Part shown: piece by piece, positions 37,878-41,976 of the stretch
Position numbering within the stretch: the first letter of the stretch is position 1
How the letters are laid out: every line of letters starts with the position of its first letter
DNA from: Candidatus Woesebacteria bacterium
Lineage (GTDB): Bacteria; Patescibacteriota; Microgenomatia; UBA8517
Length of the DNA: 64,000 bases
Direction of reading: 5' to 3'
Assembly: GCA_013374835.1 (NCBI GenBank)
Contig: CP055307.1
Span: 74,447-138,446 of the forward strand
The notes under the pieces: generated by a model
Databases searched by the model: none
What the model was told of the DNA's origin: nothing
Seen by the model: only the letters and a program-made list of their open reading frames with translations
Position numbers and translations under genes: made by a program

Positions 37878-38234
37878 ATGAGCAAAGTATACGCAATCGA
37901 ATGGAACGATCTAATCTCTCAAACAGCCCCGAATCTAAATCAAAACAGTACAATCGGATCTCTCTTTAGCGGCTCAGGCCGCTTCCCCGGTCTAATTATG
38001 TTTTTCTTCTTCATCTCGGGACTTGCACTTCTGATTTATCTTCTTTTCGGCGGTTTTACCCTCTTAACCTCAGGAGGAAACCCGGATAAAGTCGAAGCAG
38101 GAAAAAAAACGATCACCAACGCAGTCATCGGATTTATAATTATCTTTACAGCTTATTGGATAGTACAAATCGTAGGCCTTGTACTTGGGTTAGAATCTGT
38201 TTCTGAAATTTTTAGCCCACGCCCGCAACCATAA
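37878..38234 (+). CDS. pilin-like protein, subfamily B (TM1-ITSGG(D/N)xxK-TM2)
   Basis: LLFGGFTLLTSGGNPDKVEAGKKTITNAVIGFIIIF. Confidence 0.55.
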   Translation: MSKVYAIEWNDLISQTAPNLNQNSTIGSLFSGSGRFPGLIMFFFFISGLALLIYLLFGGFTLLTSGGNPDKVEAGKKTITNAVIGFIIIFTAYWIVQIVGLVLGLESVSEIFSPRPQP

Positions 38235-38239
38235 TAACA

Positions 38240-38584
38240 ATGAACTATCTTGCACAAGTAAACATAGCAGAAGAATTCGGCTCCCCCTGGGGAACACAAG
38301 GAGGCCTCCATTTGGGCGACCTGGCAGGCCTTATTCTATCCACCTCGCTCGCAATCGCATCCGTAATAGTAATACTTCTTTTTATCTTTGGCGGGCTTAA
38401 AATTATTACAAGCGCAGGTGCAGACAACCCAAGAGGTACGGCGGACGGAAAACAAGCAATGACATGGGCGGCAATAGGATTTATAATTATATTCGGAGCA
38501 TACTGGATTATAAGAATTATCGAAATTATCATTGGAGTAGATTTTCTAACAAATCCTGTAAGCCTGTTTGGATATGGAGGTTAA
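38240..38584 (+). CDS. pilin-like protein, subfamily B
   Basis: FIFGGLKIITSAGADNPRGTADGKQAMTWAAIGFIIIF. Confidence 0.5.
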   Translation: MNYLAQVNIAEEFGSPWGTQGGLHLGDLAGLILSTSLAIASVIVILLFIFGGLKIITSAGADNPRGTADGKQAMTWAAIGFIIIFGAYWIIRIIEIIIGVDFLTNPVSLFGYGG

Positions 38585-38588
38585 CTAA

Positions 38589-38924
38589 ATGCTACAAGTA
38601 ATAGGAGAAATAAACCCACCGGCGCACATTGTAGGCTTTGGCACAGTCGAAGGTGGAGCACTAGGAGAACTTCTACAGCTTATCTTTAGCATCTTAATCA
38701 TCGCGGGAGGCATATACGCCCTTTTTAACTTTATAATCGCCGGCTATGCCTTTCTTTCCGCCGGCGACGACCCCCAAAAAGCCAGCAACGCATGGAAAAA
38801 AATATACCAAACCATAATAGGCTTAGTTTTCCTTGTCGGCTCATTCCTTTTAGCAGCCATCGTAGGATTACTATTATTCAACGACGCAAAAGCCCTACTT
38901 ACGCCCACAATACCAACGCCATGA
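38589..38924 (+). CDS. pilin-like protein, subfamily B
   Basis: Two TM helices flanking FLSAGDDPQKASNAWKK. ATGA overlap with the next gene. Confidence 0.5.
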   Translation: MLQVIGEINPPAHIVGFGTVEGGALGELLQLIFSILIIAGGIYALFNFIIAGYAFLSAGDDPQKASNAWKKIYQTIIGLVFLVGSFLLAAIVGLLLFNDAKALLTPTIPTP

Positions 38925-39283
38925 ACAAGCTATCACAAATCAACCTATTTCCAGACGGAGGTTTTACCGGCCCGGGCACAGGGCCCCTTGCCGATCCAAG
39001 CGCAGATCCCGCATCAACGCTTGACACGCTCCTTTCTACAATAATTGGCGTAATGACGGCAATAGCCTTTATCTGGTTTACGTTCCAAGTTTTTATCGCG
39101 GCAATATCCTGGATTACATCAGGAGGAGACAAGGCAAGGCTCGAAGCTTCCAAAAAAAAGCTGGCAACAAGCCTCGTGGGATTAGTAATAGTAATATCGG
39201 CAATCTTTTTAATTCAACTTGTTGGCATAATATTTAATCTAGAATTTCTTGAAATACCCGTTCTTTTTGCTGTATTAACTTAA
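38921..39283 (+). CDS. pilin-like protein, subfamily B
   Basis: Start at the MNKLSQ Met; the ORF track extends upstream to 38792. AAISWITSGGDKARLEASKKKLATSLVGLVIV. Confidence 0.5.
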   Translation: MNKLSQINLFPDGGFTGPGTGPLADPSADPASTLDTLLSTIIGVMTAIAFIWFTFQVFIAAISWITSGGDKARLEASKKKLATSLVGLVIVISAIFLIQLVGIIFNLEFLEIPVLFAVLT

Positions 39284-39285
39284 AT

Positions 39286-39630
39286 ATGAACAACCACATT
39301 GCTGTCAACAACCCCATTCTTGGAAACTTAAACAGTTTCCTTACAGGAGGAGGTAGTCCAAATTATTTCAGCGCGCTTCTTTCTACCCTTGTAACAATCT
39401 TTCTGCTCGCAGGAGGGGTCGCTTTTCTTTTTATGTTTCTCATCGGAGGCATCGGATGGATTACAGCAGGCGGAGACAAAGCCAGGGTAGAAGAAGCAAG
39501 AACCAAACTCACAAACGCAGGTATAGGTTTGCTGGTCCTTTTGGCAATCTGGGCAATACTCACAGCGGTTGAGCAAATCTTTGGTATCAACATTACGTCA
39601 ATAGATATAGCAAGCCTGGTAATCAACTAA
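39286..39630 (+). CDS. pilin-like protein, subfamily B
   Basis: FLIGGIGWITAGGDKARVEEARTKLTNAGIGLLVL. Confidence 0.55.
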   Translation: MNNHIAVNNPILGNLNSFLTGGGSPNYFSALLSTLVTIFLLAGGVAFLFMFLIGGIGWITAGGDKARVEEARTKLTNAGIGLLVLLAIWAILTAVEQIFGINITSIDIASLVIN

Positions 39631-39696
39631 GCTTGACAACAAAGCCAGCAAACATCTAGCATTAAGTTATAATTTATAAGGAGGTGAAAAGTATTA

Positions 39697-40068
39697 ATGA
39701 ATTTTCTTTCAACAATTTTTGCCCAACAAGATACTACTGTCAACATTCAGCCCGAAGGTTTCGATGTTATAACAGGAGCGGATCTGGGAAGCTGGATTAG
39801 TTGGTTTGTAACAATAATCTTAATCGTTGCCGGCTTGCTCTTTTTCTTTATGCTGGTAATAGGAGGTATAAGATGGATCACCTCGGGTGGAGATAAAGGA
39901 AGCACCGAATCGGCAAGAAACCAAATCACAGCAGCCCTAATAGGCTTAATCATCGTCTTTGCCGCTTGGGCAATCGTATCCCTGCTTGGAAACGCCTTCG
40001 GCATTGAAATTTTCAATTTCACAATCCCAGGTCTTGGTAGCGGCGGCGGAGGTGGAACCATCAGCTAA
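39697..40068 (+). CDS. pilin-like protein, subfamily B (Gly-rich C-terminal tail)
   Basis: MLVIGGIRWITSGGDKGSTESARNQITAALIGLIIVF. Ends GSGGGGGTIS. SD GGAGGTG upstream. Confidence 0.55.
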   Translation: MNFLSTIFAQQDTTVNIQPEGFDVITGADLGSWISWFVTIILIVAGLLFFFMLVIGGIRWITSGGDKGSTESARNQITAALIGLIIVFAAWAIVSLLGNAFGIEIFNFTIPGLGSGGGGGTIS

Positions 40069-40152
40069 ACCAAAACCTTAAAAAAGCTGGTTTTGGTTTA
40101 AACCAGAACCCTCGTTTAGTTAAACGGGGGTTTACGGTTATAATGCCAACTA

Positions 40153-41601
40153 ATGGTTTATTTTATTCTAATTCTTGGCTACTCGCTTAATCTTATTTTT
40201 ATAAGTATTTTTAAATACAACTATTCGTATGACGAAATCATAGTTACCGAAATAAGCAAACAGCCAATAAGCACTCTATTAAATACAATCAAAGCAGAGC
40301 CACACCCTCCCGGGTTTTATTTTTTATTAAAATTTCTCCCGGTAGATAATCCGACCGCGACAAAATTAATAATCACGTCAGCAAGCTTCATCCTTTCCAC
40401 AGCTACCATTTTCTTTCTACACAAAAAGGAATTAATCAATAAATTCAAGCTCAAACACGGGCTTACGCTTTTTTTCTCGTCTTTTACCTTTCTCTCCACA
40501 AGCACAGAGGTAAAACAAACAAGCCTTTCAGCACCCATACTTCTGCTTTTTCTCTCCACTTTGTTTTATACGGCTAATAAAAACAAAATAAGCCAGATAA
40601 ACATAATAACTATTAATATTAGTGTTCTACTTCTTCTGTCACTGGGCTACATCAACTATTTAATAGGACTCTTTACCCTAATTGCCATCTGTTTAATCAA
40701 AAAAAATAAATTATTAATTTACTCATCAATCTTTCAACTAATTATATTGCTTTTTTTTCTAAAACTATTTGCGCTGGATCAAATCATAATTAATACCCAT
40801 AGGTTCTCTTGGATAAACGAATTTTATTCAAACCCAATAAATTTATTAAGCACCCACATTTCAGGCTTCTATTCTCAACATCCCGCCCTGGATATTCCTC
40901 TAATCTTTTTTCTCCTGCTAATTTTTTTGGGAATCTACAAAAACAACACAAAAACACCCAAAGCATTCTACTATGCCCAAATTGTTGCTCTAATACTATT
41001 TCTTATTACAATAATTACAAAAACCTCTGTAAGAGTAAGGTATTCAACTCCCCTGCTTTTTACGCTTAGCACCCTGGCAGGCTGGGGACTAATAGCTCTA
41101 AACAACGCTTTCAAAACAAACTCGCTTTATAAACCGACAATTTCCCTTTTCTTTTGTCTGGGATTTTTAGGACATATCTACAACCAAACAACCATCCAAA
41201 AAAATAACCAAATAATAGTCAACGCTGTCAATTCCTTTCCCGAGAACAAAAAGGTAGCTCTCGCAATCGACAGAGAAATTTATCCCCTCGCTTTCAAATT
41301 AAAATTCTTCAAAAACAAAAAGAATTTAATTCCGGTAAATTTTTTTAACCCCGGTCTAATTGAAAACTCTCAAACAATTACCCAAAAGCATTTAACAAAT
41401 TATTCCTTACCCGGTCTCCCACTCAAAATTAAATATGAAAACTATCTATTTGTAGATATTCAAAGGCCGATTAAATCAAATAGCGAAAAGGATAAAATCA
41501 ATTTAATCCTCACCCTTAACAAATCCTGTAAACAATCAAACATTATTAATATCAATAATTCATTTACACTCTATTCTTTTGAAGACTGTCTTTCAAAATA
41601 A
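40153..41601 (+). CDS. GT-C fold glycosyltransferase (ArnT/PMT-like) embedded in the pilin array
   Basis: YDEIIVTEISKQP...AEPHPPGFYFLL matches the DE-x-Y...hPPL first-loop signature of GT39/GT83 enzymes. ~12 TM plus a C-terminal soluble domain. Confidence 0.5.
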   Translation: MVYFILILGYSLNLIFISIFKYNYSYDEIIVTEISKQPISTLLNTIKAEPHPPGFYFLLKFLPVDNPTATKLIITSASFILSTATIFFLHKKELINKFKLKHGLTLFFSSFTFLSTSTEVKQTSLSAPILLLFLSTLFYTANKNKISQINIITINISVLLLLSLGYINYLIGLFTLIAICLIKKNKLLIYSSIFQLIILLFFLKLFALDQIIINTHRFSWINEFYSNPINLLSTHISGFYSQHPALDIPLIFFLLLIFLGIYKNNTKTPKAFYYAQIVALILFLITIITKTSVRVRYSTPLLFTLSTLAGWGLIALNNAFKTNSLYKPTISLFFCLGFLGHIYNQTTIQKNNQIIVNAVNSFPENKKVALAIDREIYPLAFKLKFFKNKKNLIPVNFFNPGLIENSQTITQKHLTNYSLPGLPLKIKYENYLFVDIQRPIKSNSEKDKINLILTLNKSCKQSNIININNSFTLYSFEDCLSK

Positions 41602-41643
41602 CGAAAGCCTTGCCGAGATGTTTTCTCCAATATAAAATGAGTT

Positions 41644-41976
41644 ATGAACATGCTTACCCCATTTGTTTATGCAATAGATCCAAGCAACATCCAAGACGGA
41701 GATGTGCCAATACTAAGAGGCCTCGAAGACGTATTTGAATCTGTAATAAGCCTTGCTATTCCGCTTGCCGCCATTGTCCTTTTTGTTCTTCTTATCATAG
41801 GTGGATTCAAATACCTCACAGCCGGCTCAAACGCGGGCAAAGTCGAGGCAGCTCAAAAAACCATAACTTACGCAATTTTAGGCATGGTCCTTATTGCCCT
41901 AGCCTATTTGATATTAGAATTTATCGCCGCATTCACAGGAGCTACTTATCTACGCCAATTCAGAATAAGAATATAA
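41644..41976 (+). CDS. pilin-like protein, subfamily B
   Basis: LLIIGGFKYLTAGSNAGKVEAAQKTITYAILGMVLI. Confidence 0.5.
   Translation: MNMLTPFVYAIDPSNIQDGDVPILRGLEDVFESVISLAIPLAAIVLFVLLIIGGFKYLTAGSNAGKVEAAQKTITYAILGMVLIALAYLILEFIAAFTGATYLRQFRIRI

Follow-up and report, generated by a model that had tools for sequence, protein, structure and literature searches.

Seven ancient orthogroups in a fixed order within an array of ten genes for type IV secretion pilin-like proteins of Candidatus Woesebacteria

Woesebacteria belong to the class Microgenomatia, and the locus discussed here, an array of ten pilin-like genes in a 64-kb stretch of DNA from a Candidatus Woesebacteria bacterium (contig CP055307.1; the whole stretch is called "the window"), is of a kind reported before. 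Among the type IV secretion systems (T4SSs) of Patescibacteria, 441 arrays of 2-11 pilins have been described, defined by at least two PF18895/PF04956 genes in tandem or one non-pilin gene apart, situated near virB4, prgI and dnaA (T4SS genes within +/-20 coding sequences) and commonest in Microgenomatia (Quinonero-Coronel et al. 2025, PMC12102498). From the parallel with Bartonella and Anaplasma, the same study suggested that such arrays help in adapting to different hosts; in those two genera a role in antigenic variation or host interaction is ascribed to VirB2 paralogs encoded by tandem, divergent pilin genes within the T4SS locus (PMC12102498). The T4SS of Southlakia epibionticum comprises an essential series of pilin subunits; few gene sets have been shown to be required for the epibiotic lifestyle of Patescibacteria, and T4SS pilin arrays are one of them (Wang et al. 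2023, PMC10633639).

Our locus is another instance of the Patescibacteria VirB2-like pilin array, with no essential difference: its ten genes stand in tandem with a single gene, for a glycosyltransferase of the C fold type (GT-C), as the sole interruption, the identity of the encoded proteins is low (15-50%), and virB4 is close by. The kind of feature was thus already published in 2023 and 2025, and what we add is the positional orthology of the copies, their invariance between strains, the GT-C insert, the lack of a demonstrable link to VirB2 and a link to the integrative and conjugative elements (ICEs) of Mycoplasma. In the searched portions of the text of PMC12102498 and PMC10633639, in which the string 'ortholog' occurs 0 times, we found neither fixed-order 1:1 orthogroups with near-invariance between strains nor the split between signal-peptide/Cys-rich and short forms or a GT-C insertion. 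Throughout, B1-B7 denote the seven short pilin-like genes and A1-A3 three longer genes upstream of them.

Positional orthology and conservation between strains

An earlier note on this DNA, made from the letters alone, had reported an array of seven small open reading frames (ORFs) of 110-123 amino acids (aa) at 37878-41976. All seven are present on the plus strand with ATG starts; however, the array consists of ten genes, since A1-A3, directly upstream, also match the T4SS pilin family PF18895, and the interval given for it also holds an unrelated 482-aa gene. A profile built from the family recovered exactly these ten ORFs, and none else, in the 64-kb window (Table 1). We read the ten-gene layout on 24 contigs, which stem from several independent samples and include a metagenome-assembled genome (MAG) at NCBI, and the B6 protein was recorded on contigs in 28 blocks of the searched collection. 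One Logan contig matches the window with 100% identity along 20 kb, and the MAG of Candidatus Woesebacteria bacterium UBA1430 (DCTW01000009.1) is 92-96% identical to the window. The bacterium or a close strain is present in samples SRR6186653 (identical along 20 kb) and SRR5506739.

For a more distant comparison we used the same locus from six genomes (L006-L011), whose SmpB proteins are 48-58% identical to that of the window. The order common to the window and these genomes is SpoIID, one to three A-type genes, B1-B6, a slot of variable content, B7 and a large secreted protein, with the exceptions that SpoIID was not called on the L007 contig and that the L008 contig ends just after B6, leaving B7 out of view. 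B7 is always the last pilin gene and directly precedes the gene for the large secreted protein. An intact B2 orthologue of L006 (~8460-8760) lies in a gap between called genes, where the gene caller had missed it. By neighbour joining with the four best-characterised genomes each of B1-B7 forms a clade (bootstrap 82-100), and in the three further genomes the best match of every B gene is the expected orthogroup, by a wide margin in bit score. Orthologues are 42-66% identical, whereas paralogs within a genome reach only 24-48%, and no gain, loss or shuffling of B copies by lineage was found across the window and the six genomes. B1-B7 are thus seven ancient orthogroups in a fixed order.

Between the window and UBA1430 the proteins of B1, B2, B5, B6 and B7 are 100% identical (nonsynonymous divergence dN = 0), B4 differs by one substitution and B3 by six, five of which fall in its C-terminal tail. 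The synonymous divergence (dS) is 0-0.09 across the B genes versus 0.15-0.32 in the flanking genes, and the segment from B2 to B7 (38146-42045) is 96-100% identical to UBA1430, as a mosaic of perfect blocks and small clusters of differences, compared with 92-95% in the flanks. This mosaic identity, together with the dS lower than in the flanks, looks like the trace of a recent recombination or sweep over the B2-B7 segment. The B genes are under strong purifying selection. Their fixed order, housekeeping-level conservation and near-zero change between strains argue that B1-B7 are non-redundant, distinct subunits whose divergence is ancient and frozen; ongoing diversification of one subunit does not fit the 1:1 positional orthologues and the identity between strains. 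The description of the array as a diversified structural subunit in the earlier note therefore holds in so far as the genes are pilin-like in the T4SS sense (PF18895 members beside a T4SS), but their divergence is old and the copies are now conserved.

Strain-level variation sits instead in the ectodomain of A3 and in a 700-aa protein encoded farther downstream. In the A-type proteins a Sec-type signal peptide precedes an ectodomain, which has 2-20 Cys residues, and a conserved N(T/S)AIGC(I/V) box, followed by the hairpin; the number of their genes varies from one to three between genomes. The A3 ectodomain (residues 26-160) of the window is 44% identical to that of UBA1430, with 20 vs 8 Cys and a length difference of 35 residues, while the hairpin of the same protein reaches 90%. 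Between these strains, otherwise 92-96% identical in DNA, the 700-aa protein shows only 39% identity, and across genomes it is between 651 and 900 aa long.

Family membership and hairpin architecture

PF18895 (T4SS_pilin; gathering threshold 26.6 bits) matches all ten proteins, eight of them above the threshold (27.0-42.6 bits); B4 (25.0) and A1 (26.3) fall just below it, though both share the alignment and the orthogroups of the other copies. Among the B genes the E-values range from 2e-5 to 6e-11, with 6/7 above the gathering score, and the family was matched in 47/47 B6 homologues (best E 1e-11). The ten genes are therefore T4SS pilin-like proteins and not chance ORFs. The best NCBIfam match of every one of the ten is NF045849, the Mbov_0395 family of pilin-like conjugal transfer proteins from Mycoplasma ICEs, with nearly the whole 80-position model covered (15.0-31.8 bits, E 8.5e-8 to 0.015); as these scores stay under the equivalog cutoff of 40 bits, the array proteins are relatives, not members, of NF045849. 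The two share a monoderm host and a neighbouring VirB4 of the same broad type. Since, besides NF045849, the VirB4 and TrsD-like proteins of the locus match Mycoplasma and Gram-positive models, the pilin-like gene may belong to, or have arrived with, the monoderm T4SS lineage rather than having been co-opted from diderm systems, a question that PMC12102498 left open for Patescibacteria.

Each B protein contains two strongly hydrophobic segments of 19 residues (Kyte-Doolittle) with a short polar loop between them. The AlphaFold2 model of B6, calculated from a 47-sequence alignment, is a helical hairpin (H30-62 / H67-101) with a predicted local distance difference test (pLDDT) score of 86-97 over those residues and disordered termini. 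The two hydrophobic helices with a short loop that had been noted earlier are thus borne out by hydropathy for all seven proteins and by the model for B6. The conserved turn was given there as TSGG(D/N)xxK, which stands as a loose consensus, (T/S)(S/A)GG(D/N), but occurs literally in B1 only: B4, B5 and B6 have (S/A)GGDK(A/G)(R/S), and B2 and B3 deviate further, the turn of B3 being AGYAFLSAGDDPQK and its tail PTIPTP. A shared core does emerge on proper alignment. Its conservation relative to divergent termini, likewise claimed before, is clear among orthologues (core 47-70%, termini 22-47% identical) but weak among paralogs, in which core, N-terminus and C-terminus are 27%, 24% and 13% identical. 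The best conserved copy is B6, with 70% identity in the core among orthologues. The paralogs are 18-48% identical among the B copies (15-50% over all ten), and at the nucleotide level 48-56%, far from the near-identity that would have pointed to an artefact. Recombination tracts between paralogs, which the earlier note had suggested looking for, did not turn up: the repeat search found no repeats of at least 15 nucleotides (nt) shared between them, nor any long inverted repeats such as flank invertible switches. Gene conversion and repeat collapse are rejected on this ground.

The B-type proteins start with a hydrophobic stretch that is very short and ends in A-Q/D (MNYLAQ, MNFLSTIFAQ, MKxLLAQ; e.g. 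at 38240-38260 and 39697-39726). Such a motif is found in 81/120 B6 homologues, compared with 6.5 +/- 2.3 in shuffled sequences. It resembles a signal-peptide c-region that lacks a full h-region, and may be a mini-leader cleaved like the A↓Q site of VirB2, or an insertion signal. Pilins of type IV pili were considered as an identity for the array proteins and rejected because the class III prepilin leader (G↓FxxxE) is absent from all ten; no N_methyl-type Pfam family was matched either.

The B genes are spaced by -4 to +5 nt, with the exceptions of 66 nt before B6 and an interruption of 1.6 kb before B7, so that the tight packing asserted previously applies to most of the array but not to these two junctions. 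The ATGA overlap is confirmed: the B4 start at 38921 overlaps the stop codon of B3. A longer mechanical ORF for B4 begins at 38792, but we prefer 38921 because independent gene calls on four contigs give a B4 of 120 aa and the N-termini of its orthologues agree with this start. Strong Shine-Dalgarno sequences are found only at B3 (GGAGG; 38575-38588) and B6 (AAGGAGGTG; 39670-39696). A scan for promoters and terminators returned 17 promoter-like sites vs 17.0 in shuffled sequences and hence gives no operon map. A palindrome lies just past B6 (40082-40117).

Possible assembly of the array proteins

We cautiously favour a reading in which the ten hairpin proteins serve a monoderm-type T4SS and B1-B7 co-assemble as non-interchangeable subunits of one heteromeric structure. 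The tight packing and the one start/stop overlap suggest that the array genes would be co-expressed, that is, co-transcribed and in part translationally coupled. Once inserted in the membrane, the hairpins would have their (S/A)GG(D/N) loop facing the cytoplasm and their two termini outside; we take the termini to be exposed because they evolve faster than the core among orthologues and because the B3 changes between strains cluster in the C-terminal tail. VirB4/VirB3/VirB6-like machinery would then extract the hairpins and build from them a single heteromeric structure, either a filament on the surface or a conduit spanning the cell wall, with distinct, non-interchangeable positions for B1-B7. 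B6 is a candidate for the major subunit, as it is the best conserved copy and has the strong AAGGAGGTG site after the only sizeable intergenic gap. The A-type proteins may add their Cys-rich ectodomains as variable, host-facing tips, an idea suggested by the contrast between the A3 ectodomain and its hairpin in their conservation between strains. If Southlakia epibionticum is a guide, the structure would mediate the contact of the epibiont with its host cell. In type IV pili and type II secretion pseudopili, several distinct co-encoded pilins build one filament with specialised tip subunits; the analogy is functional only, given that those pilins form an unrelated family and that none of our ten proteins has a class III signal peptide.

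Seven old, conserved subunits in fixed order move the working model of such arrays away from variation in host range or antigens and closer to an assembly of several subunits, and a heteromeric filament or conduit, if true, would have no precedent among the solved, homopolymeric conjugative pili. The fullest form of the proposal is that Woesebacteria build an obligately heteromeric T4SS filament or conduit of seven subunits, with strain-variable Cys-rich caps, GT-C-glycosylated in some lineages, and descended from a monoderm pilin-like protein rather than from a diderm VirB2. We put it forward as a tentative extension that is, taken whole, rather unlikely.

Several observations weigh against co-assembly into a pilus-like structure. 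To our knowledge, every solved conjugative or T4SS pilus (F, pED208, T, N) is a homopolymer of one VirB2-type pilin with lipid; a filament of seven subunits would be without precedent. What fixed order and conservation prove is that the subunits are non-redundant, not that they co-assemble, and the strong Shine-Dalgarno sequence of B6 is kept only in the two closest genomes (it is present in L006, but not in L007 or L008). The array proteins share with the VirB2/TrbC/TraA pilins of diderm T4SSs (PF04956; PDB 8cue, 8exh) their size, two hydrophobic helices, the short polar loop, the T4SS locus and the presumed VirB4-driven extraction from the membrane; they differ in the B forms without a long cleaved leader, the monoderm envelope, the many distinct copies and the absence of detectable similarity. 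Pfam TrbC (PF04956) matched only 2/10 array proteins, with E 0.03-0.09, and over the 47 B6 homologues it gave three weak matches, no better than unrelated transmembrane families. The 47-homologue B6 profile, aligned by hhalign with VirB2 of A. tumefaciens (sequence verified as identical to PDB 8cue), obtained a probability of 0.4%, and a PDB sequence search with the 47-sequence profile returned no match. Foldseek comparison of the AlphaFold2 hairpin with the PDB reported non-specific helical hairpins at E above 4, a bare hairpin being uninformative in this respect. Homology to VirB2/TrbC proper could thus not be shown by sequence or profile. Finally, a filament has yet to be observed for a T4SS of Patescibacteria, and the pilus has been called a 'possibility' (PMC12857230).

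A serious alternative, which we judge to have a lesser though real chance of being correct, is that the hairpins remain in the membrane and form, with the VirB6-like protein, a translocation channel or a short cell-wall stalk, like the pilin-like protein of Mycoplasma ICEs, for which no pilus is known. The consistent NF045849 matches of all ten proteins (E 8.5e-8 to 0.015) and the resemblance of VirB4 and the TrsD-like protein to Mycoplasma and Gram-positive models agree with it, Gram-positive T4SSs are generally without pili (PMC12102498, PMC12857230), and seven fixed subunits suit a complex of defined composition no less than they do a filament. However, the large Cys-rich ectodomains of the A-type proteins and the faster-evolving termini suggest an exposed structure. 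Between a short stalk and a long filament the present evidence does not discriminate.

We regard as improbable that the paralogs are interchangeable versions of one subunit, alternative major pilins kept as a repertoire for host range or antigenic variation. The low identity of the B copies (18-48%) is like that of the published arrays (mean 25%, maximum 54%; PMC12102498), and the termini, presumably surface-exposed, differ most between paralogs, as such a repertoire would have it. But positional orthology is strictly 1:1 in seven divergent genomes, with no turnover of B copies, pilin orthologues are conserved as much as SmpB, 5/7 B proteins are identical between strains, there are no shared nucleotide tracts for gene conversion nor long inverted repeats, and the variation between strains falls in the A3 ectodomain and the 700-aa protein. 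Unlike the Bartonella and Anaplasma paralogs, the copies here keep their position and stay invariant between strains, and the host-adaptation suggestion of PMC12102498 fits the present locus poorly.

It is very improbable that these are unrelated small membrane proteins (holin-like or bacteriocin-immunity-like) that resemble pilins as any two-helix hairpin does: the fold search was indeed non-specific and weak matches to many unrelated transmembrane families were obtained, but PF18895 is found in all 47 homologues (best E 1e-11), the single consistent NCBIfam best match is a conjugation pilin-like family, and synteny with VirB3, VirB4, TrsD and the VirB6-like gene holds in every related locus long enough. 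An assembly artefact or a very recent tandem duplication of one gene, to which nothing but the tandem layout points, has next to no chance in view of the nucleotide divergence of the copies without shared repeats, the recurrence of the ten-gene layout on 24 contigs from several samples and the orthologues of each copy in distant genomes.

The GT-C gene and the T4SS neighbourhood

The slot between B6 and B7 (40069-41643 in the window) is variable in content. It holds the 482-aa GT-C gene in the lineage of the window and in L006 only; it is empty in L007 and L009, and contains a minus-strand VirD4-like gene in L010 and an Avd/23S_rRNA_IVP-like gene in L011. A further Avd/23S_rRNA_IVP-like gene was seen in L008, near SpoIID. 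The 482-aa protein has no match in Pfam (E up to 10) or NCBIfam, and only ten homologues were found in a collection of 5.8 billion proteins. Its AlphaFold2 model (pLDDT 84.7, predicted template modelling score 0.87) was matched by Foldseek to ArnT, AftA, PglB, ALG9, DPY19, AftD and Pmt4 (E from 1.6e-4, TM-score ~0.4-0.5), the top eight matches having a probability of 1.0. The sequence exhibits an invariant D27-E28 pair after the first transmembrane segment and an invariant PHPPGFY box. The GT-C fold and the acidic pair, which falls in the first extracytoplasmic loop, identify the 482-aa protein as a GT-C glycosyltransferase. Another GT-C-type protein of the window, with a weak PMT_2 match, is encoded at 5522-6994; BLASTP detected no similarity between it and the 482-aa protein.

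A precedent is TfpW of Pseudomonas aeruginosa Pa5196, a GT-C arabinosyltransferase whose gene adjoins pilA. The likeness lies in a gene for a glycosyltransferase of the GT-C fold inside a pilin cluster; the differences are that TfpW serves a type IV pilus, whereas here the pilin-like acceptor is putative, and that the GT-C gene is absent from the slot in 4/6 related genomes. We speculate that the enzyme glycosylates the pilin-like proteins, and consider it a candidate pilin or envelope glycosyltransferase, which makes the gene a testable candidate for pilin glycosylation.

Table 1. Genes of the pilin-like array and of its T4SS neighbourhood in the 64-kb window
Feature	Coordinates	Strand	Product	Support
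VirD4-like	1-1634	+	VirD4-like coupling protein, truncated at its 5' end by the window edge	PF10412 TrwB_AAD_bind 35.1 bits vs cutoff 20.5; TraG-D_C
A1	35942-36673	+	Signal peptide, Cys-rich ectodomain (14 Cys) and hairpin, 243 aa	PF18895 E 7.8e-6, residues 173-231
A2	36678-37088	+	Signal peptide, short ectodomain and hairpin, 136 aa	PF18895 E 7.2e-8
A3	37092-37847	+	Signal peptide, Cys-rich ectodomain (20 Cys) and hairpin, 251 aa	PF18895 E 4.1e-8
B1	37878-38234	+	T4SS pilin-like hairpin protein, 118 aa	PF18895 E 2e-10, 41 bits; orthogroup bootstrap 94
B2	38240-38584	+	T4SS pilin-like hairpin protein, 114 aa	PF18895 E 4.7e-6, 27 bits; orthogroup bootstrap 82
B3	38589-38924	+	T4SS pilin-like hairpin protein, 111 aa	PF18895 E 3.9e-8; orthogroup bootstrap 100
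B4	38921-39283	+	T4SS pilin-like hairpin protein, 120 aa	PF18895 E 2e-5, 25.0 bits; orthogroup bootstrap 98
B5	39286-39630	+	T4SS pilin-like hairpin protein, 114 aa	PF18895 E 8.5e-9; orthogroup bootstrap 100, sister to B6
B6	39697-40068	+	T4SS pilin-like hairpin protein, 123 aa	PF18895 E 6.2e-11; 1263 homologues found
GT-C	40153-41601	+	GT-C-fold glycosyltransferase, polytopic, 482 aa, not a pilin	AlphaFold2 and Foldseek; between B6 and B7
B7	41644-41976	+	T4SS pilin-like hairpin protein, 110 aa (108 aa if from the second Met)	PF18895 E 2.2e-9; orthogroup bootstrap 95
1182-aa protein	41995-45543	+	Secreted protein without recognisable fold, 1182 aa	Signal-like N-terminal segment
537-aa protein	45575-47188	+	Polytopic membrane protein, 537 aa, candidate VirB6 analogue	Position and topology only
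700-aa protein	47200-49302	-	Protein without signal peptide, transmembrane segment or known domain, 700 aa	No match in Pfam (E up to 10) or NCBIfam
PrgI/VirB3-like	49439-50416	+	PrgI/VirB3-like protein	PF12666 PrgI E 5.8e-8, 33.6 bits vs cutoff 27
TrsD/TraC-like	50418-51119	+	TrsD/TraC-like protein (N-terminal VirB4-like module)	NCBIfam TrsD E 1.4e-7; VirB4_plasma residues 104-290
VirB4-like	51106-53016	+	VirB4-like T4SS ATPase, monoderm (CD1110) type	NF045971 381 bits vs cutoff 325; PF19044 P-loop_TraG E 7.7e-33

The VirB4 gene is the sixth downstream of B7, with those for PrgI and the TrsD-like protein in between, and is followed by a gene for a NAGPA-domain protein and then by dnaN and dnaA, 3-5 kb beyond VirB4; a SpoIID-domain protein is encoded just upstream of the array. 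The TrsD-like protein scores under the TrsD subfamily cutoff, and its orthologues match a TraC-like Pfam family. The VirD4-like reading frame, ~36 kb from the pilin array, is open to the start of the window. With a VirB4 of the CD1110/TrsE type and its PrgI/VirB3 and TrsD-like partners, the system is like the monoderm (MPF-FATA-like) T4SSs, and the locus is a chromosomal, origin-proximal, monoderm-type T4SS, as described for Patescibacteria (PMC12102498).

In every related locus that reaches past B7, the position after B7 is taken by a large ORF (719-1355 aa), and in the five distant loci compared its product has 39-48% aligned identity to the 1182-aa protein of the window. The latter has no match in Pfam (E up to 10) or NCBIfam, phmmer against the PDB gave only chance-level matches to xylanases, and a scan of contigs with it returned the UBA1430 contig only. 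A peptidoglycan-hydrolase motif in its C-terminus was suspected by eye and dropped, as no search supported it. The 537-aa protein has a signal-like N-terminus and hydrophobic stretches that merge into ~5-8 membrane segments; it is syntenic in relatives (39-46% identical) and has no family match in Pfam (E up to 10) or NCBIfam. VirB6 is scarce in Microgenomatia (PMC12102498). The 700-aa protein, whose gene comes next on the opposite strand, could be a secreted substrate or a host-interaction factor.

Elsewhere in the window, besides the GT-C-type gene at 5522-6994, we noted further envelope-related genes, for a 708-aa Peptidase_C39-like protein on the minus strand (10707-12833) and for a Wzy_C O-antigen-ligase-like protein (60718-61947).

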